A stretch of 63,197 bases of DNA from Chloroflexota bacterium (GCA_005889275.1 VBFI01000043.1:1-63197); one strand, 5' to 3'; numbered from the stretch's first letter, positions 33,442-50,105 are shown. Numbers and translations: made by a program. Notes: generated by a model from the sequence alone, not told the origin.

Positions 33442-34920
33442 CTACGGCAGGTCCTTCGGCTTCTCTCCCTTGCCGACGAGCCAGCCCCAGCGCTCGAGCG
33501 CGAGACGCTTCGTCTCCGGTGTGGGAAGCTGCGAGACCGGGAAGCGATCGCGCCACTCCCACGGCCGCGTCGCGTCGATGATCGCGCGCGAGCTGAAGCC
33601 CTTCTTGTCCGGGTGGATGCGCGGATCGAGCGGGCCGCTCCACGCGCGCGGGATGATGTCGATCGATTCGGCCGGCTCGCTGCGGGTGCACATCGCCCAG
33701 AGGACCTGCTCGAGATCCATCACGTCGATGTCGTCGTCGACGACGACGGTGTAGCGACCCAGGTACGCGCCGGTATGCACGCTCGCCGCCGCGTGCCCGA
33801 CCTGCCGCGCGTGACCGGCGTACCGCTGGCTGATCGAGACCGCGTTGAAGAGACGCGAGCCGCCGACCTCGTGGCACCACACGCCGACGATGCCCGGGAT
33901 CGACGCCGCCTCGAGGTCGCCGCGCAGGCGCGCGCTCCGCATGAACGCACGGTAGAAGGACTGCTCGTCGGGCGGCACGTTCGGCGGCGAGGCGAGGATG
34001 ATCGGATCGCTGCGGTGGTAGATCGCTTCGACGCGGAACACCGGCTCCGCACGCTCGCCCGAGGCGTAGTAGCCGGTCCACTCGCCGAAGGGACCCTCGA
34101 CCTCGCGCTCCTCGGGGTCGACCCAGCCCTCCATGACGATCTCGGCATCGGCCGGGATCGGCAGCCCGGTGACCGGCCCCTTCACGACGCGATACGGCGC
34201 GCCGCGGACGCCCCCGGCCCAGTCGTACTCGGTCGTCCCGTAGGGGATCTCGGTGCAGGCGGCGAGGAAGAGGAGCGGGTCGCCGCCGGGGCAGAAGGCG
34301 AGCGGCATGCGCTCCTTGCGCGCGAACCACTTGTCGCGATGCTGCCGGCCGTGCTTGCCCGGTGAGATGTAAAAGCCAAGGCGCGTCTTGTCGTGGACCA
34401 TCACCCGATACGTCCCGAGGTTCACCCAGCCCTCGTCGGGGTCGCGGGTGATGTCGAAGCTCCCGGTGCCGAGGTAGCGTCCCCCGTCGAACTCGTGCCA
34501 CTTCGGGGCGGGGAACATGAGGCAGTTGACCTCGCTGCCGCGCAGGACGTTCTCGAACACGGGTCCGTCCTTGACGACCTCCGCCGGGATGGTGGGGATG
34601 CCCTTGCGCACGCGCTCCTGCCAGCTGCGCACGAGCTCGTGCGGCGAGGCGTTCGGGTCGAGACCGAGCGTCACCGCGATTCGTGGGAAGGAGCCGAGGC
34701 CGTTCGACAGGACGCGGAATCCCTTGCGGTAACCCTTGATCTCGTCGAAGAGCGTCGCTTTCGACGGGCGCGTGCGGCCGAGCAGTTCGGTCGCCATGCC
34801 GATGTCCTCTTCGGTGTTCGCGCCGCGTACCGTCTGAAGCTCGCCGAGCGCATCGACCCGCGTCAGCCAGTCGCGGAGGTCGGTGGGGGTGCTCACCTTT
34901 GTAGGGATCGTGGTGGTCAT
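33442..34920 (-). CDS. UbiD-family (prFMN-dependent) decarboxylase, paralog 1
   Basis: VNLGTYR, EGPFGEWTGYY and C-terminal IIDATRPW motifs. SD GGAGA 7 nt upstream. Confidence 0.85.
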   Translation of the reverse strand: MTTTIPTKVSTPTDLRDWLTRVDALGELQTVRGANTEEDIGMATELLGRTRPSKATLFDEIKGYRKGFRVLSNGLGSFPRIAVTLGLDPNASPHELVRSWQERVRKGIPTIPAEVVKDGPVFENVLRGSEVNCLMFPAPKWHEFDGGRYLGTGSFDITRDPDEGWVNLGTYRVMVHDKTRLGFYISPGKHGRQHRDKWFARKERMPLAFCPGGDPLLFLAACTEIPYGTTEYDWAGGVRGAPYRVVKGPVTGLPIPADAEIVMEGWVDPEEREVEGPFGEWTGYYASGERAEPVFRVEAIYHRSDPIILASPPNVPPDEQSFYRAFMRSARLRGDLEAASIPGIVGVWCHEVGGSRLFNAVSISQRYAGHARQVGHAAASVHTGAYLGRYTVVVDDDIDVMDLEQVLWAMCTRSEPAESIDIIPRAWSGPLDPRIHPDKKGFSSRAIIDATRPWEWRDRFPVSQLPTPETKRLALERWGWLVGKGEKPKDLP

Positions 34921-35029
34921 CGTTCCGTCTCCCCGCCGCTATTCATCGCCGCGTAACGGTACGCGTGGGGTGCGACCGAACGGTCGCTGGGTCCGCGTCG
35001 CACCACCAGCGCGAGGGCGTCTTGCGGCG

Positions 35030-35044
35030 AATGATCATACCATT
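35030..35044. promoter_or_regulatory. Operator C: AATGATCATACCATT
   Basis: Lies in the divergent region between UbiD-1 and the second ABC system. One mismatch. Confidence 0.65.
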
Positions 35045-35072
35045 GGACCAACCGTGCGATGCTGAGGTGAGC

Positions 35073-35870
35073 GTGGCGGTAAAGCTCGAAGCACGGCGCG
35101 TGGCGATCAAATACCGGCGGCAGAGCACCGGGCTCGATCTCGTCGCGGTCGATGGCGTCGACCTCCGGATCGATGACGGTGAGTTCGTGTCGATCGTCGG
35201 TCCATCCGGCTGCGGCAAGACGACGTTCCTCAACGCTGTCGACGGCCTGATCGCGATCGAATCCGGCGCGCTCGTGCTCGATGGACGCGAGATCGCGGCG
35301 CCCGGTCCGGATCGCGCGATGGTGTTCCAGCAGCCGAGCCTCCTGCCGTGGCGCACGGTCACCGGGAACGTCCTCTACGGCCTCGAGATGCAGCACCGCG
35401 GCGGGGAGGAATCGCGGAAGACCGCGGCGCGGCTCATCGATCTCGTCGGCCTGGAGGGATTCGCGGACTCGTGGCCCTCCGAGCTCTCCGGGGGGATGCA
35501 GCAGCGCGTGAACCTGGCCCGTGCGCTCGCGACGGACCCCGAGCTGCTGCTGCTGGACGAGCCGTTCGCGGCGCTCGACGCGCAGACCCGAGAGACGATG
35601 CAGCAGGAGCTCCTCCGCATCTGGGGCGCGACGCGCAAGACCGCTCTCTTCATCACCCACGACATCACCGAGGCTGTGTACCTCGCGGACCGCGTCATCG
35701 TGTTCACGGCTCGGCCGGGGCGCGTGAAGCTCGACGTGAGGATCGACCTGCCGCGCCCGCGGGACCTGCGCCTCAAGCGCGAGGCACGATTCATCGAGTA
35801 CGAGCGCACCATCTGGGAGTCGATCCGCGAAGAGGTGCTGCGGACCGAGTCGCGAGCCCAGGTCGCCTGA
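35073..35870 (+). CDS. ABC transporter ATP-binding protein (NitT/TauT family), second system
   Basis: Walker A GPSGCGKTT, LSGGMQQR, LLLDEPFAALD. I prefer GTG 35073 (GAGG 5 nt upstream) because ATG 35031 lies inside operator C. Confidence 0.85.
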   Translation: MAVKLEARRVAIKYRRQSTGLDLVAVDGVDLRIDDGEFVSIVGPSGCGKTTFLNAVDGLIAIESGALVLDGREIAAPGPDRAMVFQQPSLLPWRTVTGNVLYGLEMQHRGGEESRKTAARLIDLVGLEGFADSWPSELSGGMQQRVNLARALATDPELLLLDEPFAALDAQTRETMQQELLRIWGATRKTALFITHDITEAVYLADRVIVFTARPGRVKLDVRIDLPRPRDLRLKREARFIEYERTIWESIREEVLRTESRAQVA

Positions 35871-36802
35871 TGTCGCAGCAGCCGCCCGGAAATATCGACT
35901 CCGGCGTCGTCCTGGATGGCTCGTACCTGGCTGCGTCGCCAACACCCGCCGAGGCCGTGGCCCTCGCGCCCCGAGGCGCCGCGCGCGCGAGTGCCATTCG
36001 CGGCCACGAGCCGGTGATCATCGGCACGGTCACGGTCCTTCTCTTCTTCGTCGTCTGGCAGGGCATCGGCCTCCTTCGCGACCGCTCCCCGGACGGCCTG
36101 GCCCTCGGGCCGTTCCTGTTCGTGCCGCCGTCGCAGCTCTTCCTCCCCGCGCCGCTCGACATCGCGAAGGCGTTCCAGGCGTACGTCCAGGACGGACGGA
36201 TCTGGAAAGACGTCGCGGTGAGCGGCCAGGAGCTGGCCATCGGGTACGTCGCCGCGGCGATCCTCGGGATCATCCTCGGCCTCCTGGTCGGGTGGTACGC
36301 GCGCCTGCGCTACGCGCTCGATCCGTTCATCACCTTCCTCTACGCGACGCCGCGGATCGTCCTGCTCCCGCTCTTCATCATCTGGTTCGGGATCGGCGTC
36401 GAATCGAAGATCGCGGTGGTCTTCCTCGGGGCGATCTTCGCGATCCTCATCAACACGACCGCCGGAGTGCGGAACCTCGACGCCAACCTCGTGAAGGTGG
36501 CTCGATCGTTCGGAGCGTCGGACTTCCAGCTGTTCCGCACGATCGCGCTCCCCGGATCCGTGCCGTTCATCCTGACCGGGCTGCGCCTGGGGATCGGGCA
36601 CGCGCTCACCGGTGTCGTCGTCGGGGAGCTTGTCGCCGCTCAGTTCGGCGTCGGGCAGATGATGGCCGTCGCCGGCGCGACCTTCCAGAGCTCGAAGGTC
36701 TTCGCCGGGCTCTTCCTGATCGCGGGCGCCGGGATGCTCATGACCTTCACGCTCCAGCGGCTCGAGCAGCGCTTCCAGGCCTGGCGGCCGAAGCCGAACT
36801 AG
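35870..36802 (+). CDS. ABC transporter permease (NitT/TauT family), second system
   Basis: TGATG overlap with the ATPase. Polytopic. EAA-like loop (RNLDANLVKVARSFGASDFQLFRTIALP). Confidence 0.85.
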   Translation: MSQQPPGNIDSGVVLDGSYLAASPTPAEAVALAPRGAARASAIRGHEPVIIGTVTVLLFFVVWQGIGLLRDRSPDGLALGPFLFVPPSQLFLPAPLDIAKAFQAYVQDGRIWKDVAVSGQELAIGYVAAAILGIILGLLVGWYARLRYALDPFITFLYATPRIVLLPLFIIWFGIGVESKIAVVFLGAIFAILINTTAGVRNLDANLVKVARSFGASDFQLFRTIALPGSVPFILTGLRLGIGHALTGVVVGELVAAQFGVGQMMAVAGATFQSSKVFAGLFLIAGAGMLMTFTLQRLEQRFQAWRPKPN

Positions 36803-36889
36803 GTCGCCCGAGGCGCAGCCGCACTCCCGCGCGCGGGCCCACTCGTCGCGGGAGGCTAGGCTTGTCGGACAACACAGGGGAGGAAGCCC

Positions 36890-37279
36890 ATGGCAGGGAA
36901 CATCGTTCACTTCGAGATCAACGCCAAGGACGCCGGCCGCGCGAAGCGCTTCTACAGCACCGTCTTCGGTTGGAAGTTCAAGGACTCGGCCATGCCCGGT
37001 ATCGAGTACTACCTGACGGACGGGACGCAGCCTCCCGGGGCGATCAACCCGATGCAGCAGGACCCCGGTCCGGTCGTGTACTTCGACACGGACGACATCG
37101 ATGCGTCCATCAGGAAGATCCGCGAGCTCGGCGGAAAGGCCGACGACAAGCAGCCGATCCAGGGCCAGGGCTGGTTCGCGGCATGTGTCGACACAGAGGG
37201 AAACAAGATCTCGCTCTTCCAGGCCGACCCGAGCGTGACGGTGGAGACCGAGCGCCAGTACCAGCAAGCCCGCGCATAA
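36890..37279 (+). CDS. VOC-family (glyoxalase/bleomycin-resistance fold) protein
   Basis: IVHFEI...AKRFYSTVFGW...GWFAACVDTEGNKISLFQ. Strong SD GGGGAGGAAG. Confidence 0.8.
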   Translation: MAGNIVHFEINAKDAGRAKRFYSTVFGWKFKDSAMPGIEYYLTDGTQPPGAINPMQQDPGPVVYFDTDDIDASIRKIRELGGKADDKQPIQGQGWFAACVDTEGNKISLFQADPSVTVETERQYQQARA

Positions 37280-37312
37280 GGTCGAACCAACAGCAGCTCT
37301 CATACGCGACCT

Positions 37313-37347
37313 GAGGCCGCCGGGACGCGGGTTGGCCCGGCGGCCTC
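37313..37347 (+). terminator. GC-rich hairpin after the VOC gene (no U-tract)
   Basis: Perfect 12-bp stem GAGGCCGCCGGG / CCCGGCGGCCTC with an 11-nt loop, abutting operator D. Confidence 0.45.
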
Positions 37348-37362
37348 AATGGTCATACCATT
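37348..37362. promoter_or_regulatory. Operator D: AATGGTCATACCATT (perfect 6-3-6 palindrome), autoregulatory site
   Basis: Ends 9 nt upstream of the gntR GTG and directly follows a 12-bp-stem hairpin. Confidence 0.75.
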
Positions 37363-37371
37363 CGCAGCGCT

Positions 37372-38133
37372 GTGTTCACTCCGATCCACCAGGCGCGCGC
37401 CTCGGGTGAGATCGTTTCCCAGATCGAGCGGGCGATCTTCGCCGAGGAGCTCTCGGCGGGCGACCGGCTCCAATCAGAGCGCGAGCTGGCCGAGCAGTTC
37501 GGCGTCTCACGCATCACCGTGCGTGACGCGCTCCGCGTCCTCGAGGCGCGCGGCCTCATCCGTGTGAAGGTCGGCGCGACCGGCGGGGCGTTCGGCGCGG
37601 ACGCGAGCACCGACCGCGTGGCCGAATCGCTCTCGACGATGATCCGACTCAAGCGCATGACCCTCTCCGAGCTCGCGGAGGCGCGGACGGTCGTCGAGGC
37701 GGCCACCGCCGCGCTCGCCGCCCAGCGCGCCAACGCCGGAGCCGTCTCGCGCCTCGCGCAGAACGCGCAGCAGGGCCGCGCGGTGATCCGCGAGAGCGTC
37801 ACCCACGCGGAGGCGAGCATGGACTTCCATGTCGAACTCGCGCGCGCGGCCGGCAACGAGGTCCTCTACGCGACGGTCGCGGCGTATCGCGAGCTGCTCG
37901 TCCCGGCGCTCCGCGATCTGCGCAACCCGAGCACGGTGAACAAGACGCAGAAGATCCACGAGGAGCTCGTCGAGGCGGTCCGCCGCCACGATGCGGAAGG
38001 GGCGCGCGAGCTGATGGTGGCGCATCTCGAGGACTTCGAGAAGCGTCTGCGCAGGCGGCTCGTGGAACGGGAAGAGGAGCGCCTTCCGACCGGCAACGTG
38101 CATCGACTCGTCCGTCCCGGAGGAAAACGCTGA
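37372..38133 (+). CDS. GntR-family transcriptional regulator, FadR subfamily (FCD ligand domain)
   Basis: wHTH LQSERELAEQFGVSRITVRDALRVLEARGLI, followed by an all-helical FCD-type domain (HVELARAAGNEVL...H). Confidence 0.9.
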   Translation: MFTPIHQARASGEIVSQIERAIFAEELSAGDRLQSERELAEQFGVSRITVRDALRVLEARGLIRVKVGATGGAFGADASTDRVAESLSTMIRLKRMTLSELAEARTVVEAATAALAAQRANAGAVSRLAQNAQQGRAVIRESVTHAEASMDFHVELARAAGNEVLYATVAAYRELLVPALRDLRNPSTVNKTQKIHEELVEAVRRHDAEGARELMVAHLEDFEKRLRRRLVEREEERLPTGNVHRLVRPGGKR

Positions 38134-39935
38134 TGGCGGTCGCAGCGAGACCCAGCCAGCGGACCGGCCGCGGCTACCCGGACCTGCGCGAGCATCTCGA
38201 GGCGCTCGACCGGGCCGGCCTGCTCGTCAGGGTCCGCCGTCCGATGCTCGCCGAGACCGAGATCCATCCGCTCGTGCGGTGGCAGTACCGCGGCGGCTTG
38301 CCGGAGGAGGACTGGAACGCGTTCCTCTTCGAGGACGTCCGGACCGTGAAGGGCGGGCGGTCTCCTTTCCGCGTCGGCGTCGGCGTGCTCGCCGCATCCA
38401 GGTACGTCTACGCGACCGGCCTCGGCTGCGCGCCTGATGAGATCGCCGCCCGGTGGGAGCGCGCGCTCGCTGAGCGCATCGCGCCGACCATCGTCGAGAC
38501 CGGGCCGGTGCACGAGGAGGTGCACATGGGCGACGCGCTCCTCGAGAAGGGCGGGACCGCGGAGTTCCCGATCCCGATCTCGACGCCCGGCTTCGACAAC
38601 GGGCCGTACACGACGTGCACGCACTGGTTCACGAAGGATCCCGAGACCGGCGTGCGCAACCAGGGCAACTACCGGGGTCAGATCAAGAGCCCGACGCGCA
38701 TCGGCATCTTCCCCTCGGGGCTCGGTCAGGACGTTTACATCCACTGGCAGAAGGCGCGCAAGAAGGGAGAGCACCTGCCGGCCGCGCTGGTGATCGGCGG
38801 CCCGCCCGTGGTCAGCTATGCGGCAGTGCAAAAGGTGCCGTACGGGATCGACGAGCTCTCGATCGCCGGCGGCCTCGCGGGCGAGCCGATCCGGCTCGTG
38901 CGTTGCAAGACCGTCCCGCTCGAGGTGCCGGCCGAGGCGGAGATCGTCTTCGAGGGGTACATCAACACGCAGGAGCTCGAGGAAGAGGGCCCCTTCGGCG
39001 AGAGCCACGGCTACATGCACCCGCGCCAGCTCAATCCCTTCTTCGAGGTCACCGCGATCACGCACCGGAAGGACGCGATCTGGGTCTCGTTCATCAGCCA
39101 GGTCACGCCCTCGGAATCGAGCGTCATCAAGAAGGTCGCCTACGAGCCGATCTTCACGCAGCATCTGCGGCAGACCTGCAACATCCGCAGCGTGAAGCGC
39201 GTCGTCATGCACGAGCCGCTCACGAACCTCCGCAAGCTCATCGTCGTGCAGATGGCGAACGGCGCGCGCGAAGCGGAGATCTGGCGCGCCTTGCGCGCCG
39301 CATCGTCGTTCAACCAGGGAGTGGGAAAGATCTGCGTGGCGGTCGACGAGGACATCGATCCGGAGGACTCGACCGCGCTCTGGTGGGCGGTCTGCTACCG
39401 ATCGCGCCCCGCGCAGGACGTCGAGATCACCGGCCATCTCGAGAAGGGCCACGCGCCGCCGTTCAAGGGCACGGGCATCGAGCAGGCCGCCGAAGGGCGC
39501 GACGTCGTGGGGCACGGCGACCCGGCGGACGACAGCGGCATGCTCATCAATGCCTGCCTCAAGGAGCCGTGGCCGCCGATCTCGCTTCCGAGCAAAGAGC
39601 ACATGGAGAACGCGCTCGAGATCTGGAACGAGCTCGGCCTGCCAAAGGTCCGCCCGCAGCGGCCCTGGTACGGCTATTCGCTCGGGCAGTGGGACGCCGA
39701 GCTCGAGGAGGAGGCTCGACTCGCCCTCCTGGGGGAGCACTTCAAGACCGGAGAGAAGATGGCGAAGCGCCGCGTGAAGCTCTCCGACACCCGCGCCGCG
39801 CGAGCCGACGCCTATCTCGGCACCGACCCGGTCCCCGGCACGCCGGTCGACCGGCGAGCCGCGGAGCAGGGTCCGGGCGGGCCCGGGTACGACGACGAGG
39901 CCCCGCGCGAAGTCCCGAACGACGACGCAGTGTGA
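38133..39935 (+). CDS. UbiD-family decarboxylase, paralog 2, with ~95-aa charged C-terminal extension
   Basis: TGATG overlap with gntR. NQGNYRGQ and EGPFGESHGYM motifs. Confidence 0.85.
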   Translation: MAVAARPSQRTGRGYPDLREHLEALDRAGLLVRVRRPMLAETEIHPLVRWQYRGGLPEEDWNAFLFEDVRTVKGGRSPFRVGVGVLAASRYVYATGLGCAPDEIAARWERALAERIAPTIVETGPVHEEVHMGDALLEKGGTAEFPIPISTPGFDNGPYTTCTHWFTKDPETGVRNQGNYRGQIKSPTRIGIFPSGLGQDVYIHWQKARKKGEHLPAALVIGGPPVVSYAAVQKVPYGIDELSIAGGLAGEPIRLVRCKTVPLEVPAEAEIVFEGYINTQELEEEGPFGESHGYMHPRQLNPFFEVTAITHRKDAIWVSFISQVTPSESSVIKKVAYEPIFTQHLRQTCNIRSVKRVVMHEPLTNLRKLIVVQMANGAREAEIWRALRAASSFNQGVGKICVAVDEDIDPEDSTALWWAVCYRSRPAQDVEITGHLEKGHAPPFKGTGIEQAAEGRDVVGHGDPADDSGMLINACLKEPWPPISLPSKEHMENALEIWNELGLPKVRPQRPWYGYSLGQWDAELEEEARLALLGEHFKTGEKMAKRRVKLSDTRAARADAYLGTDPVPGTPVDRRAAEQGPGGPGYDDEAPREVPNDDAV

Positions 39936-40012
39936 TGCGCATGGCGGTCTCGTCGAAGGCGGGATGAAATGAGCGACGAGCGGTTCATCCGCGAGGAGCG
40001 AATCTGCCAGCC

Positions 40013-40480: not shown

Positions 40481-40482
40481 GC

Positions 40483-41058
40483 GTGCGGCGGATCGTCGTC
40501 GGGATCTCGGGTGCCTCCGGCGCGATCTACGGCATCCGCATGCTCGAGGCCCTGCAGAAGGCGAAGGACGTCGAGACCCACCTGATCGTCTCGACCGGCG
40601 CGAAGGCGACGATCGCGTATGAGACGCCGTGGCGGATGGAGAATGTTCTTGGCCTCGCCGACATCGTCCACGACGAGCGCGATCTCTCCGCGACCCTCGC
40701 GAGCGGCAGCTTTCAGACCCACGGCATGGTCGTCGCGCCGTGCTCGATCCGGACGATGTCGTCGATCGCCAACTCGTTGAACGACAACCTCATCGTGCGG
40801 GCGGCGGACGTCCACTTGAAGGAGCGCCGCACGCTCGTGCTCATGGTGCGCGAGACCCCGCTCCACGCGGGACACCTCCGCCTGATGCACGAGCTCGCGC
40901 TCACCGGTGCGGTCATCCTTCCGCCCGCTCCCGGCTTCTACCACCTGCCCAAGACGATCGAGGATCTCGTCGATCACAGCGTCGGCAAGGCGCTGGACCA
41001 GCTCGGGATCGAGCACGCGCTCTTCCGAAGGTGGAACGGAGTCGCCAAGACGGAGTGA
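40483..41058 (+). CDS. ubiX: Flavin prenyltransferase UbiX (prFMN synthase)
   Basis: RIVVGISGASGAIYG, VVAPCS..T...IA and LVLMVRETPLH motifs. GTG 2 nt after the upstream stop. Confidence 0.9.
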   Translation: MRRIVVGISGASGAIYGIRMLEALQKAKDVETHLIVSTGAKATIAYETPWRMENVLGLADIVHDERDLSATLASGSFQTHGMVVAPCSIRTMSSIANSLNDNLIVRAADVHLKERRTLVLMVRETPLHAGHLRLMHELALTGAVILPPAPGFYHLPKTIEDLVDHSVGKALDQLGIEHALFRRWNGVAKTE

Positions 41059-41774
41059 GCGTCCGGAGCCCGTCCGGCCTCGCCCTCCAGGTCGCCGCGG
41101 CGAGCCGGGCGCTCGCGGTCGCCGGCCTCTTCGACATGCACGGCCACCTGAGCGTCCGCGAGGGCGACATCGCGTATGTGAACGCGCACAGCGCGAGCCG
41201 GATCGCGATCCGACCCGACGAGGTCGCGAGTGTGCGCATCGGGGACGGGGCCACGGTCGGCGGGACCCCACCGAGCGAGCTGCCCATTCATCTTGAGATC
41301 TACCGGGCGCGCGCCGACGTCGGCGCGGTCGTCCACTTCCATGCGCTCTACGCGACCGCGCTGGCGGTCGCAGGGAAGCCCTTCGTCGCCGCCTTCAACG
41401 CGGGCGCCCCGTTCGGTCGCGAGGTCCCCGTCTTCGACGATCCGCGGCTCGTACGCGACGACGCGATGGGCCGGAGGGTCGCCGCCGTCGTGGGGAGCGG
41501 GCGCGCGGCGGTCCTGCGTGGGCACGGCGCGGTGATCGCCGCGGCGGGCATCGTTGACGCGGTCGCCCTGGCCCTCGAGCTCGAGGAGAGCGCTCGGCGG
41601 CTCTGGCTCAGCTACGCGATCGGCGGGCCCCGACGCTTCAGCGCGGACGAGCTCGCGAGCGTTGCCGCCGGGATCGGTGAGCCGCGCGTCACGCGCAAGA
41701 TCTGGATCGACGCGCTCGAACGTGCCCGCCTCGCGGGGGCCCTGGCCGGACTCGACATTGAGTCGCTGATCTGA
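41055..41774 (+). CDS. Class II aldolase / adducin N-terminal domain protein
   Basis: GTGA overlap with ubiX. ELPIHLEIY and VVHFHALYATA (HxH metal ligands) motifs. Confidence 0.75.
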   Translation: MSVRSPSGLALQVAAASRALAVAGLFDMHGHLSVREGDIAYVNAHSASRIAIRPDEVASVRIGDGATVGGTPPSELPIHLEIYRARADVGAVVHFHALYATALAVAGKPFVAAFNAGAPFGREVPVFDDPRLVRDDAMGRRVAAVVGSGRAAVLRGHGAVIAAAGIVDAVALALELEESARRLWLSYAIGGPRRFSADELASVAAGIGEPRVTRKIWIDALERARLAGALAGLDIESLI

Positions 41775-42639: not shown

Positions 42640-42684
42640 GGCTGGCATGGTCCCTGCGGCCGCTTTCCGGCAGGAGGTCACGAA

Positions 42685-42999
42685 ATGGATACACGCACCC
42701 AGGAGGTCCACGTCCCGAGCGAGCACGTGGCTGTTGTCGCGATCTTCGCGGACCGCGAGGCGGCGGAAGCCGCGATCGATGCCCTCCTCGACCAGCGCTT
42801 CACCGACGATCAGATCTCGCTCGTCGCGCGCGGCGCCGGCACCGACGAGTCCGGAAAGTTCGTGCCGGGCGGGCTCATGGTGACGGTGAATGCGACGGGC
42901 CGCGAGCACGACGCCGAGCGGATCCTCACCAGCCACGAGGCCAGCGAGGTGACGACGAACCGCGTCGGCGCGACGGGAAGGGTCGGCGAGGAGACCTAG
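42685..42999 (+). CDS. Small general-stress-like protein (YflT/DUF1269-like N-terminal domain)
   Basis: VVAIFADREAAEAAIDALLDQRF..DQISLVARG motif. 104 aa. Confidence 0.45.
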   Translation: MDTRTQEVHVPSEHVAVVAIFADREAAEAAIDALLDQRFTDDQISLVARGAGTDESGKFVPGGLMVTVNATGREHDAERILTSHEASEVTTNRVGATGRVGEET

Positions 43000-43874
43000 C
43001 GGGCGGCCGCCGGCCGCAACGAGACCGCGCTGTCGATCCAGCGGGTGATGGCGTCGGCCACATCGCGTTCGTGCCCCGAATAGAGATGGTTGGCGCCGGC
43101 GATCATCGCGCCGGTGAAGCGGTCCGGGATGACCTGCCTGAGACGCTCGAGGTCGCTCTCACCACCTACCGCGGCCTCGTCGGTGCCATACATCGCAAGG
43201 ACCGGGCAGCTCGTCGTCACGAGAAGGCCGGAGGGATCGCCAACGAGGGAGCGCGAAAGGATTGTCGCCGCGCTGAGCCGCCCGAACGTGAGTCCCGCGG
43301 TTCCGAGATCGACGAGCTCCTGTGGCCGACCGGCGTTCACGGCTTCACGGGCCCTCGCCAAGAGATCCTCGCCGGGCCGGGCGGCGAAGCCTCGGAGCGG
43401 CGGAGAGGCGAGGATCAGCCCGACGAGCTCGCGGTCGGGTCGGGCGCTCGTGTAGAGGAGCGCCTTCACGGCGCCGAGACTGTGCCCGAGCAGCACGATG
43501 CGCCTCGCGCCGGATGCGAGCGCGAGATCGATCCAGGCGTCGAGATCCTCGGCGGCGTCCTCGAGTCGTTCGAACCAGGCGCCGCCGAGGCGCACACCAT
43601 CGCGGGTCGGCAACGGAGTCGCGAGGCCCGACCCACGATTGTTGCCGGCGATGACCGTGTATCCAGCCGCACCGAGTTCGCGCCCGACCCGCACGTGCCC
43701 CTGCCGGAACACGGAGCTTCGGACCCCATGCATGTAGACGATCGCGAGATCGCTCGGCGGCGGCCCATGCCGGACGCCCTCGAGCAGCAGTCCGTCGGAG
43801 GTGTACGCGTGGAGCAGCTCTTCCGTCACCGAGTCCGGCAACGCTACTCCGCCGGACCGCGGGCCCCCGCGCAT
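42996..43874 (-). CDS. Alpha/beta-fold hydrolase
   Basis: Nucleophile elbow GHSLGA. ATG 43874 is chosen because the longer tracked ORF would run through operator E and into the SBP-4 gene. Confidence 0.7.
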   Translation of the reverse strand: MRGGPRSGGVALPDSVTEELLHAYTSDGLLLEGVRHGPPPSDLAIVYMHGVRSSVFRQGHVRVGRELGAAGYTVIAGNNRGSGLATPLPTRDGVRLGGAWFERLEDAAEDLDAWIDLALASGARRIVLLGHSLGAVKALLYTSARPDRELVGLILASPPLRGFAARPGEDLLARAREAVNAGRPQELVDLGTAGLTFGRLSAATILSRSLVGDPSGLLVTTSCPVLAMYGTDEAAVGGESDLERLRQVIPDRFTGAMIAGANHLYSGHERDVADAITRWIDSAVSLRPAAAR

Positions 43875-44031
43875 CGCGTCGATCACCGCCTGCGCGAGGA
43901 TCCAACCCCACTTCTTGCGTGTCTCGCGCTTGGTCTCGGCGTCGGGGCCGATCGCGATCGAAGACGAGCGGCTCGACGCCGCAGACGACCGCTCGCGGAG
44001 GTCTCCGCATTCTCCGCCGCGTCGGTGGTCA

Positions 44032-44046
44032 AATGGTCTTACCATT
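44032..44046. promoter_or_regulatory. Operator E: AATGGTCTTACCATT (perfect palindrome)
   Basis: Lies 34 nt upstream of the SBP-4 ATG, at the head of the SBP4-UbiD3-CoA-transferase-fni operon. Confidence 0.75.
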
Positions 44047-44079
44047 CTTGCGGAGCAACGGTTCGTGGGAGGTGTGGCC

Positions 44080-45102
44080 ATGCGTCGAGCGCTCGGTGCC
44101 GGTCTCGCTCTGGTCGTGCTGGCCGCCGCCTGTGGGGGCACCGGCCAGGTCTCGACGCCGAGCGCGTCCGCGGGTGGCACGCTCGCGCCGCCGCCGGCCG
44201 TCCACCTCGAGGTCAGCTACAGCAACGTCATCGGGGACGAGCTGCCGCTCTGGGCCACGAAGGAGGGCGGCTTCTTCGACAAGAACGGTCTTGACGTGAA
44301 CCTCTCCAACATCGCGAGCGCGCAGGGCGTGCCGGCGGTGATCGCCGGGCAGGTCACCTTCGCCCAGGTCGGCGGGTCCGAGGTCCTCTCAGCGAACGCG
44401 GGAGGCGCCGATCTCGTCGTCGTCGCGCAGCTCGCCGGCGTGTATCCCTTCGTGCTCGAGGTCGCGGCCGACATCAAGACCGTCGCCGACCTGAAGGGCA
44501 AGAAGATCGGGGTGTCGACCGTGGGCTCGTCCTCCGACATCGCGACGCGGGTGGCGCTCAAGAAGATGGGGCTCGATCCTGAGAAGGACGTGAGCATCCT
44601 GGCGGTCGGCTCCGCGGCGAACCGCGTCGCGGCGCTCTTCGCCGGATCCATCCAGGGTGGCGTCTCCCAGCCGCCGGACTCGCTCGACCTCGAGGCGAAG
44701 GGTTTCCATGTCCTCTACGACCTCGCCTCGCAGAAGCTGCCGTCGGCGAACACGTCGGTGGCCGTTCGGCGCTCGTACATCGCGCAGAACAAGGACGTCG
44801 TCCAGCGCTACGTCGACTCGATCGTCCTCGGGATCAAGAAGCTGAAGTCCGACAAGGCCTTCGGGATCTCGGTCCTGAAGAAGTACTTCAACTCGACCGA
44901 CGATGCGAAGATGGGCGTGACCTACGACTTCTACGCGCTGAGCGTCGCGCCGGTACAGCCGTTCGCGAAGCTCGAGATGTACACCGATTCGCAGGTCACG
45001 CTCGGCGCGACGAACGCTGCCGTGAAGAGCTACGACTTGAGCAAGATGCTCGACTCGACCTTCGTTCAGAGTTCGATCGACCGCAACCTCGACAAGAACT
45101 GA
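44080..45102 (+). CDS. ABC substrate-binding lipoprotein, NMT1/SsuA-like (SBP-4)
   Basis: SD GGGAGGTG. Lipobox LAAAC. DLKGKKIGVSTVGSSSD. Close paralog of SBP-2. Confidence 0.85.
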   Translation: MRRALGAGLALVVLAAACGGTGQVSTPSASAGGTLAPPPAVHLEVSYSNVIGDELPLWATKEGGFFDKNGLDVNLSNIASAQGVPAVIAGQVTFAQVGGSEVLSANAGGADLVVVAQLAGVYPFVLEVAADIKTVADLKGKKIGVSTVGSSSDIATRVALKKMGLDPEKDVSILAVGSAANRVAALFAGSIQGGVSQPPDSLDLEAKGFHVLYDLASQKLPSANTSVAVRRSYIAQNKDVVQRYVDSIVLGIKKLKSDKAFGISVLKKYFNSTDDAKMGVTYDFYALSVAPVQPFAKLEMYTDSQVTLGATNAAVKSYDLSKMLDSTFVQSSIDRNLDKN

Positions 45103-45116
45103 TCAGGGAGCAGCTG

Positions 45117-46742
45117 ATGGCAACGGCGCAAGCGGACGTCCGGCGGAAGGCGGCAAAGACCCCGCTCCGCGATCCGAGGGAGGCGCCTCGAGCGCCGCAG
45201 GAGGCCCTTCGCTCGCTCCCGAAGACGATCGAGTGGCTGCGCCGTGAGGGCCTGCTCATGGAGACGGACACCCCGGTATCGGGAGACCTCGAGCTCACCG
45301 GCATCCAGAAGCACTTCGATGGGAGCTATCCCATCCTCTTCAACAATGTGAAGGGCTACCCGAACGTGCGGGCGATCACGAACTTCTTCGCGAACATGGA
45401 CATCGTCGATCGCCTCTTCGGATGGCAGGACCGCACCGCCCGCACACGCGAGCTCGCGCACGCGCTCACGCACCCGATCCCGAGCGAGGTCGTCTCGCAG
45501 GAGGAGGCGCCCTGTCAGCAGGAGGTCATCACCGACGACCTCGACGTGAACAAGTACATCCTGCCGATCCGGCATACCCACCTCGAGTCGGAGATCACGA
45601 TCGGCTCCGGCAACAGCGTCGTCGTCGGCGACAAGTTCTGGGGCGGCAGCCACATCGGCTACAACCGCATGAACTTCCGCTGGGGCAACATCGGCACCTT
45701 CCAGATCTCGCCCGGCTCGCACATGTGGCAGGTCATGACGAAGTACTACAAGGACGAGCCGGTCCCGCTCACGGTTTGCTTTGGACTCCCCGCGGCGGCG
45801 ACGCTGCTCGCGGGCGGCGGCTTCGACTATGTCGTGCTCCCGCGCGGCGGCGACGAGCTCGGCGCGGCCGGCGCGGTGCAGGGGTTCCCGATGCGCCTCG
45901 TGAAGGCTCGCACCGTCGACGCGTACGCGGTCGCCGACTGCGAGTACGTGCTCGAGGGCTACCTCCATCCCCGCGACAAGCGGTATGAGACGAAAGAGGC
46001 CGAGGAGCACGACACCCAGGGGCGCTACCACTTCCACCCGGAATGGGCCGGCTACATGGGCAAGGCGTACAAGGCGCCGACCTTCCACGTCAGCGCGATC
46101 ACGATGCGCCGGCGCTCGGATCGCCCGTTCATCTACCCGATGGGCGTGCACATGTACGACTGCAACAACATCGACACGACCGTGCGCGAGGCGGCATTCT
46201 TCGAGTTGTGTGAAAGGATTCAGCCGGGGCTGATCCAGGACGTCAACATCCCGTTCCCGATGACCGACTGGGCCGGCGCGATCCTGCAGGTGCGCAAGCG
46301 CCTCAAGACCGACGACGGCTTCACGAGAAACTTCCTCGCCGCGGCGATGGCCTGCAGCTCGGGCATGCGCCTCTGCATCGCGGTCGACAGCGACGTCGAC
46401 ATCTACTCGATGGACGACATCATCTGGGCGCTCACGACGCGGGTGAACCCGCGCGACGACATCCTGAATCCGGTGCCAGGGGGCGCGGGACAGACGTTCA
46501 TCCCGTCGGAACGGCTCACCGCGGGTGGCGCGCAGTGGACCGCGATGAACACGCGGTTCGAAGGCGGCATGGCGATCGACGCGACCGTTCCGTACGGGTT
46601 CGAGAACGACTTCATGCGGCCGGTCTATCCGATCGACCGGGTGGACCCCTCAGGTTGGTTCGACGAGGACCAGATCACGAAGGGCAAGGCGGCCATGAAG
46701 ACGTCGTCGTGGGCGGAGGTCCTCGCGCGCACCGGCCGCTAA
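45117..46742 (+). CDS. UbiD-family decarboxylase, paralog 3 (divergent active-site region)
   Basis: Overall UbiD architecture (NNVKGYP, IGYNRMNF, HPEWAGYMG in place of EGPFGE.TGY, C-terminal AIDATVPY). Confidence 0.75.
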   Translation: MATAQADVRRKAAKTPLRDPREAPRAPQEALRSLPKTIEWLRREGLLMETDTPVSGDLELTGIQKHFDGSYPILFNNVKGYPNVRAITNFFANMDIVDRLFGWQDRTARTRELAHALTHPIPSEVVSQEEAPCQQEVITDDLDVNKYILPIRHTHLESEITIGSGNSVVVGDKFWGGSHIGYNRMNFRWGNIGTFQISPGSHMWQVMTKYYKDEPVPLTVCFGLPAAATLLAGGGFDYVVLPRGGDELGAAGAVQGFPMRLVKARTVDAYAVADCEYVLEGYLHPRDKRYETKEAEEHDTQGRYHFHPEWAGYMGKAYKAPTFHVSAITMRRRSDRPFIYPMGVHMYDCNNIDTTVREAAFFELCERIQPGLIQDVNIPFPMTDWAGAILQVRKRLKTDDGFTRNFLAAAMACSSGMRLCIAVDSDVDIYSMDDIIWALTTRVNPRDDILNPVPGGAGQTFIPSERLTAGGAQWTAMNTRFEGGMAIDATVPYGFENDFMRPVYPIDRVDPSGWFDEDQITKGKAAMKTSSWAEVLARTGR

Positions 46743-46752
46743 CCGCGCGGTA

Positions 46753-48987
46753 GTGCTCGACGGGATTCGCGTCCTCGACCTCGGCGACGATTCCGGCGCG
46801 CACTGCGCGCGGATCCTCGCCGAGCTTGGGGCCGAGGTCAGGCGATCGCGCGACCCCACACGTGCCGCCTCGGCCGACGTCGTCGTCCAGACCGAGGATC
46901 GTCTCCACTACGACAGGCTCGCGACGGCGAACCCGCGCACGATCCTCGTCACCATCACGCCCTACGGCACGACGGGACCGCTCGCCGGCGTGCCCGCGTC
47001 GGATCTCGAGGTCACCGCGGCGAGCGGGTGCCTCTGGCTCGCGGGGGAGCCCGGCCGCACTCCCGTTCGGACCACCCTTCCGCAGTCGCCGTACTGGACC
47101 GGCATGTACGCGGCTCTCGGCGCGCTCGCCGCCCTGGCGGCGCGCGAGCGGAGCGGACGGGGGCAGCACGTCGACGTCTCGGCCCAGGCCGCCATGGCGA
47201 CCGTGCACCCACCGGCCATCGTGTTCTGGGAGACCTTGCGCGAGGAGCATCGCCGCCTCGGCCCCTATCTCATCGGACGGAGTGTCGTCGGCGCCAAGTT
47301 CCGCAACATCTGGCCCTGCGCTGACGGGTATCTCGCGTTCGCGATCCAGGGCGGTCCGATCGGCCGCCACACCGGTCGGATGCTCGCCGATTGGATGCGC
47401 GAGAAAGACGCCGTCGATCCGGTCATCGGCGCGATCGATTGGGAGCGATTCGACAATCGAACGCTCACGCAGGACGAGGTCGACCGCCTCGAGTCGGCCG
47501 TCGGAGCGTTTCTCGCCACGCTCACGAAGCGCGAGTTCTTCGCGGGGGTGATCGCGCGGAACATGCTCGGGTATCCGGTCGCCGACGTCCGCGACATCTT
47601 CGCCGACGAGCAGCTCGGCTCTCGCCGGTTCTGGCAGGAGGTCGTGCACGAGGGCCGCACCCTTCGCGTGCCGGGCGGGTTCGCCCTCTTCGACGGCGAG
47701 CGGCCACGCACGGCTCACCTGAAGCCAGACGCGGTGGCCGGCGAGGACTGGAGCGACGCGACGCGACCAAAGAGCGCGGAGCTCTTGGCGGAGGAAAGCC
47801 CCAACCGAGCGGTGTCGTCAGCCTTGAGCGGCCTCCGAGTCATCGAGTTCGGGTGGGCGGCGGCGGGACCGCTCGTCGGAAAATACCTGGCGAATCTCGG
47901 CGCCGAAGTGATCCACGTCGAAAGCGGCACCGTGCTCGATCCGTTTCGATCGACCTACCCGCCGTTCAAGGGCGAGCCCGCCCCCAACACGGCCGCGATG
48001 TTCGCGTTCTACGACGACGGCAAGAAGGGCGTCACCCTCAACCTGAAGCATCCCCGTGCGGCCGAGCTCGCGCTTCGGCTCATCGCCAAGGCGGACGTGG
48101 TGATCGAAAGCTTTCCCGCGGGGACGCTCGCCCGGCGCGGCCTCACGGTCGACGCGATGCGCGCGGCAAAGCGGGACCTCGTCATCCTCTCGAGCTGCAA
48201 CCAGGGACAGACCGGCCCGCACGCGCAGCATCCCGGGTACGGCAGCCAGCTCACCGCGCTCGCGGGCTTCAACGAGCTGCTCGGCGAGCGCGGTCGGACC
48301 CCGGTCATCCTGTACGGGCCGTACATCGACTACATCGCCGTCGGCTACGGCGTCATCGCCATCCTCGCGGCCCTCCAGCGGCGGCGCCGCGACGGCGACG
48401 GCTGCGTCATCGACCTCTCCCAGTACGAGGCCGGGTTGCAGTTCATGGCGCCGGCCCTCCTCGAGCACGCGCGCGATGGGTCCGTCCCCACACGGGACGG
48501 CAACCGGGACGCCGTCGCGCGTCCGCACGGCGTCTACCGGTGCGCGGGCGACGACCGCTGGGTCGCGCTCAGCATCTGGGACGAGGATGAGTTCGCGCGT
48601 CTCCGGTCGCTCGCGGGACACTTCGAATGGTCGCGCGCCGATCCCGACCTCGACGCCTGCATCGAGCAATGGACCGGCGTGCGGTCGCGCGAGGAGATCG
48701 TCGAGGCGCTTCGCGAGGAACGTCTGCGGGTCGCGCCCGTGGTCACCATCTCCGAGCTCGCCGCCGATCCCCAGCTCGCGGCGCGCAGGTTCTGGCGCCG
48801 CACGAGCCATCCCGTGCTCGGCGCACTGACCGTCATGGCGCCGCCGTTCATCCTTTCGCGAACCCCGGCCGTCCTGGAGCGCGCGGGGCCGACGCTCGGG
48901 GAACACAACGGCGAGGTGTGGCAGGGGCTTCTCGGCCTCGGCGACACCGAGTACCGTGCCCTCGCGTCGGAGGGGGTGTTCGACTGA
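46753..48987 (+). CDS. Fused tandem family III CoA-transferase (CaiB/BaiF/Frc type), two domains in one 744-aa chain
   Basis: Two repeats of the GxRVxxxG...LAxLGAEV Rossmann start (residues ~4 and ~360). Each is followed by a ...AALAAL/ILAAL helix and a C-terminal small domain. Confidence 0.8.
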   Translation: MLDGIRVLDLGDDSGAHCARILAELGAEVRRSRDPTRAASADVVVQTEDRLHYDRLATANPRTILVTITPYGTTGPLAGVPASDLEVTAASGCLWLAGEPGRTPVRTTLPQSPYWTGMYAALGALAALAARERSGRGQHVDVSAQAAMATVHPPAIVFWETLREEHRRLGPYLIGRSVVGAKFRNIWPCADGYLAFAIQGGPIGRHTGRMLADWMREKDAVDPVIGAIDWERFDNRTLTQDEVDRLESAVGAFLATLTKREFFAGVIARNMLGYPVADVRDIFADEQLGSRRFWQEVVHEGRTLRVPGGFALFDGERPRTAHLKPDAVAGEDWSDATRPKSAELLAEESPNRAVSSALSGLRVIEFGWAAAGPLVGKYLANLGAEVIHVESGTVLDPFRSTYPPFKGEPAPNTAAMFAFYDDGKKGVTLNLKHPRAAELALRLIAKADVVIESFPAGTLARRGLTVDAMRAAKRDLVILSSCNQGQTGPHAQHPGYGSQLTALAGFNELLGERGRTPVILYGPYIDYIAVGYGVIAILAALQRRRRDGDGCVIDLSQYEAGLQFMAPALLEHARDGSVPTRDGNRDAVARPHGVYRCAGDDRWVALSIWDEDEFARLRSLAGHFEWSRADPDLDACIEQWTGVRSREEIVEALREERLRVAPVVTISELAADPQLAARRFWRRTSHPVLGALTVMAPPFILSRTPAVLERAGPTLGEHNGEVWQGLLGLGDTEYRALASEGVFD

Positions 48988-50105
48988 GCGAAGCGGAGGA
49001 CATCGCGCGGCGGAAGGGGGAGCACCTGAAGCTCGCCGCCGAGGCGGACGTCGAGACGAGGACCCCGGCGGGATGGGACGACGTGCAGATCGTCCACGAC
49101 GCGCTGCCGGATCTTGACGCGACGGACGTCGACCTCGGTACCAGCTTCCTCGGGCGGAAGCTCGCGTTGCCGCTCGTCATCTCGGGCATGACCGGTGGGC
49201 ACGGGCGCGCGCTCGCCGTGAACGAGCTCCTCGCGCGGGTCGCCGAGAAGCACGGCATCGCGATGGGCGTCGGGAGCCAGCGCGCGGCGATCCGGGACCC
49301 GCTGCTCGCGCCGACCTACTCGGTCGTCCGAGAGGCGGCACCACACGCCTTCGTGATCGCGAACGTCGGGATCTCGCAGCTCGTGAAGCAGGACCGCGAG
49401 GCGGCACTCGGAGCGCGCGACATCGCCCAGATCGTCTCCATGGTCCGCGCCGACGCGCTCGCGGTACACCTCAACTACCTCGAAGAGTCGGTGCAGCCCG
49501 AGGGGCAGACGCGGGCGCGGGGCGCGCTTGCCGCGATCGCGGCGCTCGCGCGCCGATCGCGCGTGCCGATCATCGCGAAGGAGACCGGGGCCGGGATCAC
49601 GCGCGAGGTGGCCCTGCGCCTGCGGCGTGCGGGTGTGAAAGCGATCGACGTCGGCGGGGTCGGCGGGACCTCGTTCGCCGCGATCGAAGCGCTGCGGGCC
49701 GCGGCGCAGTCCGAGACCGCGCGCATGACTCTCGGCAACCGGTTCCGCGACTGGGGTGTGCCGACGGCGGTCGCCGTCGCCGGCGTCGCGACCGTCGGAC
49801 TGCCGGTGATCGCGACCGGCGGTGTTCGGAGCGGCCTCGACGCGGCGAAGGCGCTCGCGCTCGGAGCGACGCTTGTCGGGGTCGGCCGGCCGCTGCTCCA
49901 GGCCGCGCTCCGCGGCGAGGAGGCGGTCGACCAATGGATCGCCGAGTTCGAGCTCGAGCTCCGGACGGCGGTATTTCTGTCAGGAGCCCGGCGCGTGGGA
50001 GAGCTTCGCCGCGCCGCGATCGTGATCACCGGAGCGTCGAAGCAATGGATCGACCAGCTCGGCTATCGGCGAGTCGGCGTTCGCGCTTCCCCGACCCGCC
50101 GCTGA
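48984..50105 (+). CDS. fni: Type 2 (FMN-dependent) isopentenyl-diphosphate delta-isomerase; probable CTG start
   Basis: RKGEHL near the N-terminus, SGMTGG, GVGSQRA, IAKETGAG, VGGVGGTSFAAIE, ATGGVRSGLDAAKALALGA. GGAGGGGG SD 7 nt upstream of CTG 48984, which overlaps the upstream TGA. Confidence 0.8.
   Translation: MSEAEDIARRKGEHLKLAAEADVETRTPAGWDDVQIVHDALPDLDATDVDLGTSFLGRKLALPLVISGMTGGHGRALAVNELLARVAEKHGIAMGVGSQRAAIRDPLLAPTYSVVREAAPHAFVIANVGISQLVKQDREAALGARDIAQIVSMVRADALAVHLNYLEESVQPEGQTRARGALAAIAALARRSRVPIIAKETGAGITREVALRLRRAGVKAIDVGGVGGTSFAAIEALRAAAQSETARMTLGNRFRDWGVPTAVAVAGVATVGLPVIATGGVRSGLDAAKALALGATLVGVGRPLLQAALRGEEAVDQWIAEFELELRTAVFLSGARRVGELRRAAIVITGASKQWIDQLGYRRVGVRASPTRR

Follow-up and report, generated by a model that had tools for sequence, protein, structure and literature searches.

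In the 63,197-nucleotide contig VBFI01000043.1 of a Chloroflexota bacterium (GCA_005889275.1; hereafter the window, meaning this whole stretch), a gene for a type-2 isopentenyl-diphosphate isomerase (IDI-2), fni, closes a predicted operon built around a UbiD-family decarboxylase. Its product belongs to an IDI-2 subfamily in which the active-site glutamine is replaced by glutamate (Glu-type), and in Chloroflexota, Dormibacteraeota and Actinomycetota alike the genes of this subfamily keep company with those for UbiD, UbiX and a flavin-reductase-fold protein. Judging from the sequences, Glu-type IDI-2 is probably a previously unrecognised helper dedicated to prenylated flavin mononucleotide (prFMN), the cofactor of UbiD enzymes. 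The identities of the genes, their conserved linkage and the active-site substitution are observed directly. The original prediction, made from the window sequence, was that three UbiD genes share one UbiX and a dedicated supply of prFMN precursors, namely the isomerase and a flavin-reductase-like open reading frame (ORF). The part of this proposal that concerns linkage stands, since the association of fni with UbiD and UbiX is conserved; the chemistry of dimethylallyl diphosphate (DMAPP) supply is inferred, and the isomerase carries a clade-specific Gln-to-Glu exchange in its active site.

Linkage of fni to UbiD and UbiX genes

The fni product was used to scan a collection with a single genome for each species, and the proteins of the window were mapped onto the 80 loci obtained. 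A further search used the fni product of an Acidimicrobiaceae locus (L013; labels beginning with L or P denote loci and proteins retrieved in this analysis) and listed 120 matches. All of the 107 new matches among these 120 are Glu-type, and they include sequences from Acidimicrobiales, Streptosporangiaceae and a Dactylosporangium isolate.

When all loci are taken together, 33 of the 35 with Glu-type fni have a UbiD or UbiX gene within 5 kb of it; at the other two, the contig breaks off immediately upstream of fni. In the fni-centred look-ups of Glu-type genes, UbiD or UbiX is nearby in nine cases out of nine, usually in a predicted operon with fni; these cases include Limnocylindria, Acidimicrobiales, Streptosporangiaceae and Dactylosporangium, and Dormibacteraeota are added by look-ups centred on Pcd. 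The same neighbours are found at only 2 of the 62 loci with Gln-, His- or Met-type fni, both of them in Aenigmatarchaeota, and the looked-up fni flanks contain no isoprenoid-pathway genes. This gene-neighbourhood comparison strongly supports the core of the original prediction; the adjacency is not unique to the window genome but recurs in Limnocylindria, Dormibacteraeota and Actinomycetota.

The arrangement of the linked genes differs among lineages. (In the gene orders below, CoAT stands for family-III coenzyme A (CoA) transferase, Pcd for phthaloyl-CoA decarboxylase, which is a UbiD enzyme, FlavRed for the flavin-reductase-fold protein and AldoII for a class II aldolase/adducin-family protein.) The nearest relatives of the window fni product are annotated as Candidatus Limnocylindria or Chloroflexi metagenome-assembled genomes (MAGs). 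In Limnocylindria, the group of the window genome, where the fni products are 67-87% identical, Pcd-CoAT directly precedes fni at every locus with enough upstream flank, and the linkage holds also where the CoA-transferase is split into two genes. Two Dormibacteraeota loci (L087 and L088, P0222) show the order Pcd-CoAT-CoAT-fni with a 14-nt overlap; here the fni product, at 56% identity, reaches 380 bits on TIGR02151, and the surrounding genes are unrelated to those of the window. At L091, which is arranged differently, fni lies divergently upstream. The Acidimicrobiaceae locus L013 has UbiX-FlavRed-fni on one strand, and L170 (Acidimicrobiales) has UbiX, then at some distance UbiD-AldoII-RpiR-FlavRed-fni. 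A UbiD gene and a row Pcd-CoAT-CoAT-fni are found at L172. In Dactylosporangium sp. NPDC005572 (L174) the order is ABC-UbiD-fni with a 4-nt gap; this host is a named isolate and not a MAG, so that direct experiments may be possible. The order FlavRed-UbiX-UbiD-fni-AldoII is found both in Streptosporangiaceae (L176), with overlapping genes, and at the P0285 locus, and L177 has FlavRed-fni followed by AldoII and then UbiX.

The only other setting found with UbiD, UbiX and IDI-2 within 10 kb is that of the Aenigmatarchaeota loci L071 and L076, which resemble the archaeal modified mevalonate pathway, in which a UbiD-family anhydromevalonate-phosphate decarboxylase with a UbiX partner is followed by IDI-2 (PMC9128505). 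In that pathway UbiD is itself a step of isoprenoid synthesis; at the two loci IDI-2 is of the normal Gln type, and the UbiD proteins are only 25% identical to the second UbiD protein of the window (UbiD2). Unlike them, the UbiD proteins of the window are Pcd-, PhdA- and HmfF-like catabolic decarboxylases.

In full-text searches, which leave most subscription journals outside, we found no description of IDI-2 in phthalate or UbiD clusters and none of a Glu-type IDI-2. No paper found there combined phthaloyl-CoA decarboxylase with isopentenyl, and queries joining UbiX or UbiD to IDI terms gave only unrelated papers on coenzyme Q and terpenes.

Identity and active site of the isomerase

Classification with hidden Markov models confirms that fni encodes a type-2 isopentenyl-diphosphate (IPP) isomerase, as had been predicted: the match to TIGR02151, well above its cutoff (Table 1), spans profile positions 1-337 of 338. 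The protein also aligns end to end with the solved IDI-2 of S. shibatae (2zru; 256 bits). The codon at the predicted start, 48984, is CTG; it overlaps the stop of the CoA-transferase gene and matches the N-terminus of the orthologues, M-[ST]-[ED]-AEEIARRK, and several relatives have ATG or GTG at this conserved position. The nearest canonical start, GTG at 48918, would add 22 non-conserved residues and create a 70-nt overlap with the CoA-transferase gene.

The residues that bind diphosphate, Mg2+ or FMN in the S. shibatae enzyme (R7, K8, H11, R98, H155, N157, E161 and K193) are all identical in the window protein, and Glu-type fni is likely, by this measure, still to be an enzyme that binds IPP and DMAPP. 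In its full-length match, its FMN-dependent TIM barrel and its retained binding residues, it resembles the canonical IDI-2 enzymes of S. shibatae, B. subtilis (1p0k) and T. thermophilus (1vcf). A switch to a monophosphate substrate through loss of diphosphate-binding residues was considered and rejected, as the seven clade-specific positions all lie elsewhere in the protein.

The difference lies in the active site. In the alignment to 2zru, Glu167 of the window protein stands at the position of Gln160, after His155-Leu-Asn157 and before Glu161. The active-site Gln, which adjoins the substrate and the flavin and is present in all 5 solved IDI-2 enzymes, is absent both from the window protein and from the other clade members. 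A review places the Gln160 stretch (printed as Gln161) in the active site, beside a mobile segment comprising residues 162-177; a literature search on Gln160 found nothing. The UbiD/UbiX-linked fni products all read HLN[YF]LEE, whereas the others read HLNxxQE, rarely with H or M in place of Q. The first motif in place of the second can serve as an annotation rule that separates Glu-type proteins from housekeeping IDI-2. Among the 120 matches listed for the window fni product, Glu is found in 116 of the 116 sequences in which the motif could be read; among its 150 nearest representatives at 50% identity in a library of 1.8 billion proteins, 110 have Gln and 6 have Glu.

Beyond the Glu, six positions are specific to the clade, and none of them binds diphosphate or Mg. 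The most conspicuous is Arg177, in the mobile segment, which replaces the acidic or amide residue of canonical IDI-2; the other five distinguish the clade from canonical enzymes as well. In neighbour-joining analysis the Glu-type sequences group as a clade in 196 of 200 bootstrap replicates. Its sister group is the Gln-type fni of other Chloroflexota, which adjoins chorismate synthase and other housekeeping genes. Unlike canonical IDI-2, the Glu-type set is found in UbiD/UbiX operons and not among isoprenoid or housekeeping genes.

Proposed role in cofactor supply

We propose that the genes between 33.4 and 50.1 kb form several operons that serve the degradation of aromatic or dicarboxylic acids and are built on three prFMN-dependent UbiD enzymes. 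In the last operon, the solute-binding protein would deliver the acid, the fused family-III CoA-transferase would convert it into a CoA thioester of the phthaloyl-CoA type, and the Pcd orthologue would strip off the carboxyl group that is still free, leaving an aryl-CoA. Each of the three UbiD enzymes would need prFMN, made by the single UbiX from reduced FMN (FMNH2) and a dimethylallyl phosphate donor. The Glu-variant fni clade would have turned into an accessory gene of UbiD/UbiX systems, its product isomerising the isopentenyl donor to the dimethylallyl donor, that is, IPP to DMAPP or possibly isopentenyl phosphate (IP) to dimethylallyl phosphate (DMAP), and the supply of prenyl donor would rise along with the expression of the decarboxylase. 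The flavin-reductase-fold partner, which is damaged in the window genome, would supply or handle reduced flavin for both IDI-2 and UbiX. We consider it moderately probable that Glu-type fni makes the dimethylallyl donor for UbiX and that its partner provides or handles reduced flavin.

The comparative evidence ties the fni clade functionally to UbiD/UbiX systems, and a dedicated role in support of prFMN is well supported. Because the fni clade is linked to different UbiD subfamilies, the factor shared by these systems would be the cofactor. Co-induced cofactor supply also has a precedent: Pcd needs very high production, phthaloyl-CoA being unstable, and a UbiX gene of its own is part of every known anaerobic phthalate cluster (2026 review, PMC13040137). 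The synthesis of prFMN in vitro uses FMN, DMAP, NADH, a flavin reductase and UbiX, and the paper describing PhdC writes "dimethylallyl-(pyro)phosphate" for the UbiX donor (PMC13040415).

Several points weigh against this supply model. The active-site Gln160 is exchanged for Glu, with a co-varying Arg177, so that the Glu-type enzyme may do something other than plain IPP isomerisation. The donor generally reported for bacterial UbiX enzymes is DMAP and not DMAPP, and no phosphatase is linked to the module. The flavin-reductase-fold ORF of the window has an in-frame deletion of about 31 amino acids when compared with its orthologues, including a 98%-identical relative (L118). Of the Pcd clusters, 30 are complete with at least 1.3 kb of flank on either side; in these, fni is adjacent in 9, UbiX in 8, neither in 13 and both in 0; fni is not required for Pcd function, because 21 of the 30 clusters are without it. 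As for the counts of linked loci, L085-L169 came from a Pcd query, which favours loci with UbiD next to fni, and the linked loci fall into few lineages, so that they do not represent independent events. Finally, a promoter and terminator scan of 37.0-51.6 kb gave one promoter-like and one terminator-like site, which is no excess over shuffled sequence, and we infer co-transcription, the substrate of the isomerase and its effect on prFMN loading.

The substitution could alternatively mark a new function of the enzyme within the prFMN system, either the direct conversion of IP to DMAP or the maturation, isomer correction or repair of prenylated flavin, with no general boost of DMAPP. The Gln-to-Glu exchange is invariant and specific to the clade and is accompanied by a co-varying Arg in the mobile 162-177 segment, the association with both Pcd-like and PhdA-like UbiD genes points to a shared cofactor and not to one substrate, and IDI-2 stacks the isoprenyl unit approximately 4 Å from the flavin. 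Accessory proteins that handle prFMN are already known, namely the maturase PhdC and the chaperone LpdD (PMC13040415). We nevertheless regard a new function as rather unlikely: the conservation of all the diphosphate and Mg2+ residues argues against a monophosphate substrate, the equivalog cutoff for IDI-2 is well exceeded, and natural IDI-2 enzymes with His or Met exist, so that Gln is not absolutely required. We would advance only tentatively, as a doubtful proposition, that the Glu-variant clade is a dedicated fourth component of UbiD/UbiX systems beside UbiX, PhdC-type maturases and LpdD-type chaperones and not an isoprenoid-pathway enzyme, and that it makes DMAP directly from IP or acts on the prenylated flavin. 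If true, this would explain the origin of bacterial DMAP, and recalcitrant UbiD enzymes produced in heterologous hosts could be activated with its help.

That fni is simply the housekeeping IPP isomerase of its lineage, its adjacency to UbiD being inherited gene order without functional meaning, is improbable. The linkage occurs in at least five gene orders, spans three phyla and involves reading frames that overlap or nearly touch, and UbiD or UbiX is rare near fni of the other types, as described above. In Limnocylindria, fni does lie at the edge of a conserved M23-Nudix-MR_MLE-GGDEF-groESL block, and the genome scan found one fni only per Limnocylindria MAG; however, the M23-groESL block is absent outside this group. 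The clade also branches from Chloroflexota fni in housekeeping contexts, as a housekeeping origin would have it. Actinomycetes, on the other hand, mostly use the methylerythritol phosphate pathway, in which IDI is dispensable.

There is, lastly, a very small chance that the fni-like protein is a catabolic enzyme that shifts a double bond in a non-isoprenoid intermediate, acting together with the aldolase-like, thiamine pyrophosphate (TPP)-dependent and CoA-transferase proteins. Genes for Aldolase_II, an NMT1 solute-binding protein with an ABC transporter, a TPP enzyme, a CoA_transf_3 pair and RpiR or GntR regulators do recur around Glu-type fni across phyla, and Aldolase_II often overlaps fni. 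At L013 and L177, however, its tightest partners are the cofactor genes, UbiX and the flavin-reductase-fold protein, and the associated UbiD proteins span different substrate classes. The full conservation of the residues for the diphosphate and metal of IPP and the equivalog-level score for IDI-2 also speak against a non-isoprenoid substrate.

With regard to applications, UbiD decarboxylases are pursued as biocatalysts for carboxylation and decarboxylation and for the degradation of plastic monomers, but they are often inactive, being limited by the supply or maturation of the cofactor. Where cells obtain the dimethylallyl donor for UbiX is still poorly defined, and Glu-type IDI-2 is a concrete candidate for this supply step. 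What is new here is probably an accessory cofactor gene of UbiD operons that joins the known UbiX, PhdC and LpdD.

The flavin-reductase-fold partner

The original prediction had assigned the supply of FMNH2 to the flavin-reductase-like ORF upstream of ubiX. The ORF is present, ends 2 nt before ubiX and matches Flavin_Reduct (Table 1), but it is internally deleted and its assignment to FMNH2 supply has a competitor in a PhdC-like role. The match spans only profile positions 42-150 of 153, and all NCBIfam matches are far below their cutoffs. At the site of the deletion, the window reads SRIA-AIAEHPGS and the relatives read SRIA-HPVAIIGAADGDERSCSTGTVMYVSHSPAMV-AIA(E/Q)HPGS. The full segment is found in L015 and L128, and its C-terminal part is found in L118, whose contig starts inside the segment. 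The SxxP strand is absent from the window ORF and present in L118, L015 and L128, whereas the GDH motif is retained in the window. A complete Flavin_Reduct domain with SxxPP and GDH, characteristic of HpaC-like class I proteins, is thus not found in the window ORF. The deletion may reflect either a genuine loss of function or a collapse in the assembly. Orthologues of the ORF adjoin UbiX or fni at L013, L170, L176 and L177 and at the P0285 locus.

Instead of an FMN reductase that feeds UbiX, the protein may be a prFMN maturase or carrier of the PhdC/YclD kind, which takes the prFMN radical or prFMNH2 to the iminium form; we hold this to be possible, though with more doubt than belief. PhdC has an HpaC-like fold, sits in the operon phdA(UbiD)-phdB(UbiX)-phdC and activates UbiD enzymes; it is a prFMN maturase and not an FMNH2 supplier, has conserved Glu47, Glu136 and Trp138, and lacks SxxPP and GDH (PMC13040415). 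The phdABC operon of Mycolicibacterium fortuitum resembles the module described here in that UbiD, UbiX and a small flavin-reductase-fold protein occur together, and it shows that dedicated cofactor helpers are recruited by UbiD operons. The first UbiD protein of the window (UbiD1) is PhdA-like, as are the actinobacterial UbiD genes beside FlavRed-UbiX and beside Glu-type fni, and the C-terminal YP[TLI] tail conserved among the orthologues suggests a specialised subfamily. Unlike PhdC, however, the orthologues here keep SxxP(P) and GDH (GNY/GDY in L013 and L170), no IDI-2 is reported in phdABC, and the window copy is internally deleted. A sequence search of the PDB with the window ORF (E<=0.001) returned generic flavin-reductase and FMN-binding proteins only, without PhdC, and both UbiX and IDI-2 require reduced FMN. 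Because the orthologues keep the SxxP and GDH motifs and the PDB search gave no PhdC match, the role of an FMN reductase appears somewhat more likely than that of a maturase or carrier.

The UbiD decarboxylases and the CoA-transferase

As predicted, the window contains three UbiD genes, each matching UbiD_N, UbiD and UbiD_C, and a single ubiX; the whole 63 kb holds exactly 3 UbiD genes, 1 UbiX, 1 fni and 1 flavin-reductase-like ORF. UbiD1, UbiD2 and UbiD3 are old paralogues of different subfamilies, because their mutual identity is only 25-34%. The solved structure nearest to UbiD1 is 7pda (E 1.2e-107), which is the phenazine-1-carboxylate decarboxylase PhdA, and UbiD1-like genes (50-61% identity) flank Pcd or fni at many loci. 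Those nearest to UbiD2 are 6h6x and 6h6v (E 1.3e-42), HmfF-type enzymes being the closest; an orthologue of UbiD2 (63%) follows Pcd-CoAT-CoAT in L089.

UbiD3 aligns with the solved Pcd structure 8pmk with 800 bits and 65% identity over 511 positions, while the next-best family, AroY, reaches merely 148 bits. On these matches UbiD3 is an orthologue of Pcd. The alternative of an archaeal-type anhydromevalonate-phosphate decarboxylase, which would have linked fni through the mevalonate pathway, was rejected on account of the identity to Pcd and because, at the archaeal loci where fni occurs with UbiD and UbiX, fni is of the Gln type and the UbiD genes are distant. Relatives of UbiD3 with 64-91% identity are found in several phyla; soil metagenomes often contain Pcd homologues of at least 64% identity, and other phyla have them too. 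Pcd-type operons are common in uncultured soil phyla, which bears on the turnover of phthalate in soil.

The two halves of the fused 744-aa CoA-transferase correspond to the A and B subunits of benzylsuccinate CoA-transferase (9fn0), and the protein would be the partner expected to form the aryl-CoA substrate. Where the contig is long enough, nearly all of the 80+ Pcd loci have family-III CoA-transferase genes beside Pcd, mostly in pairs. The subunits are fused (744-800 aa) in the window genome and its close relatives and split in deeper Limnocylindria, Dormibacteraeota and Thermoleophilia (L011, L012, L024, L085-L089).

The anaerobic o-phthalate clusters of Thauera chlorobenzoica, Aromatoleum aromaticum and Azoarcus sp. 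PA01 encode the succinyl-CoA:phthalate CoA-transferase PhtSa/Sb, Pcd (PhtDa) and the UbiX-like PhtDb. The window resembles them in that a Pcd orthologue is followed by a BbsEF-related family-III CoA-transferase pair and in that a UbiX is associated with the cluster, here 4 kb upstream; both follow the logic that a decarboxylase made in very large amounts brings a cofactor gene along. Unlike these clusters, the window belongs to an aerobic-type soil Chloroflexota, its transferase subunits are fused and its UbiX is not adjacent. It also differs from the described phthalate clusters in that a type-2 IDI closes the operon.

UbiX and the class II aldolase-like gene

The assignment of the single UbiX rests on NF004685 (Table 1) and also on TIGR00421 (238.4 bits; cutoff 108.9). 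The UbiX proteins of loci with Glu-type fni or Limnocylindria-type genes (L013, L106, L149, L164, L169, L170, L176 and L177) are 61-77% identical to it, whereas those directly beside Pcd in fni-less clusters (L131-L167) are only 47-54% identical. There may be a subclade of UbiX that travels with Glu-type fni.

In several phyla, the UbiD/UbiX/FlavRed/fni module repeatedly includes a class II aldolase/adducin gene, which in the window follows ubiX. This gene is found also in L089, L142, L170, L176 and L177 and at the P0285 locus, and an overlap with the stop codon of ubiX or of fni is frequent. The only hint of its function is a weak match to 3,4-dihydroxyphthalate decarboxylase, with 75 bits against a cutoff of 200.

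Other features of the window

Genes were selected by the GC content of third codon positions (GC3) and then named with Pfam and NCBIfam; Table 1 lists those of the region in question. Along the row from the solute-binding protein through UbiD3 and the CoA-transferase to fni, successive genes are spaced by 14 nt, 10 nt and a 4-nt overlap. The start of the NMT1/SsuA-type gene in this row is estimated from a switch of the GC3 frame near 44100-44200.

Table 1. Genes in and around the UbiD region of the window, in order of position
Gene or product	Position	Strand	Matches and remarks
UbiD1, PhdA-like UbiD-family decarboxylase, 492 aa	33442-34920	-	UbiD_N, UbiD, UbiD_C
ABC ATPase and permease, then glyoxalase-fold protein	between UbiD1 and GntR/FCD regulator		
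GntR/FCD regulator	37372-38133	+	GntR, FCD; overlaps UbiD2 start
UbiD2, HmfF-like UbiD-family decarboxylase, 600 aa, C-terminal extension	38133-39935	+	UbiD_N, UbiD, UbiD_C
Flavin-reductase-fold ORF, 155 aa	40013-40480	+	Flavin_Reduct 1.1e-21
UbiX flavin prenyltransferase	40483-41058	+	NF004685 270.6 bits, cutoff 188
Class II aldolase/adducin-family protein	41055-41774	+	Aldolase_II 3.7e-30; overlaps ubiX stop codon
DUF1684, 104-aa ORF, alpha/beta hydrolase (minus strand)	between Aldolase_II gene and NMT1 gene		
NMT1/SsuA-type solute-binding protein	44200-45102 (start approximate; ORF opens 43801)	+	NMT1, NMT1_2, SsuA_fam
UbiD3, Pcd orthologue	45117-46742	+	UbiD_N, UbiD, UbiD_C; PDB 8pmk/8oz5 E 1e-239
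Fused two-domain family-III CoA-transferase, 744 aa	46753-48987	+	CoA_transf_3, two stretches, 4e-134
fni, Glu-variant type-2 isopentenyl-diphosphate isomerase	48984-50105	+	TIGR02151 377.3 bits, cutoff 281.3
Peptidase_M23, Nudix (minus), MR_MLE (minus), GAF-GGDEF, groES-groEL	3' of fni		

The original prediction had also suggested, as a speculation, that a nearby Nudix hydrolase converts DMAPP to DMAP, and this suggestion found no support. The gene (51422-51982) lies on the minus strand, opposite to fni, and encodes a generic NUDIX domain whose best match is a NudE-type hydrolase of ADP compounds, at 63 bits against a cutoff of 169. It forms part of the conserved M23-Nudix-MR_MLE-GGDEF-groESL housekeeping block, the distance of which to fni is variable, with extra genes inserted in L004, and it is not beside Glu-type fni in the Dormibacteraeota and Actinomycetota loci. 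A Nudix diphosphatase acting on DMAPP or IPP as the source of DMAP was rejected for want of both linkage and a specific family match.

The description of the region as an island was likewise given up. The GC content is about 70% through the window and flat at 0.66-0.72, so that the compositional sign of a foreign island is absent.

Two ORFs with a strong coding signal (GC3 0.87-0.90), one of 752 aa (12114-14372) and one of 368 aa (32227-33333), gave zero Pfam or NCBIfam matches. Cytochrome oxidase genes are also present in the window. At 15921-19492, two genes for PaaA/BoxB-like di-iron oxygenase subunits are followed by a gene of the benzoate-CoA ligase family (TIGR02262, 616 bits), and a gene for an F420-dependent LLM oxidoreductase (14848-15903) adjoins them. 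On circumstantial grounds, these genes could be an aerobic sink for the aryl-CoA made by Pcd.

Four NMT1/SsuA-type binding-protein genes (25461-31773 and 44200-45102) and two TPP-enzyme genes (26118-27908 and 28991-30559) lie within the same 20 kb, and both families reappear near the UbiD modules of L004, L170 and L177. GntR/FCD genes adjoin Pcd clusters in L085, L087 and L089 and in many metagenome loci as well.

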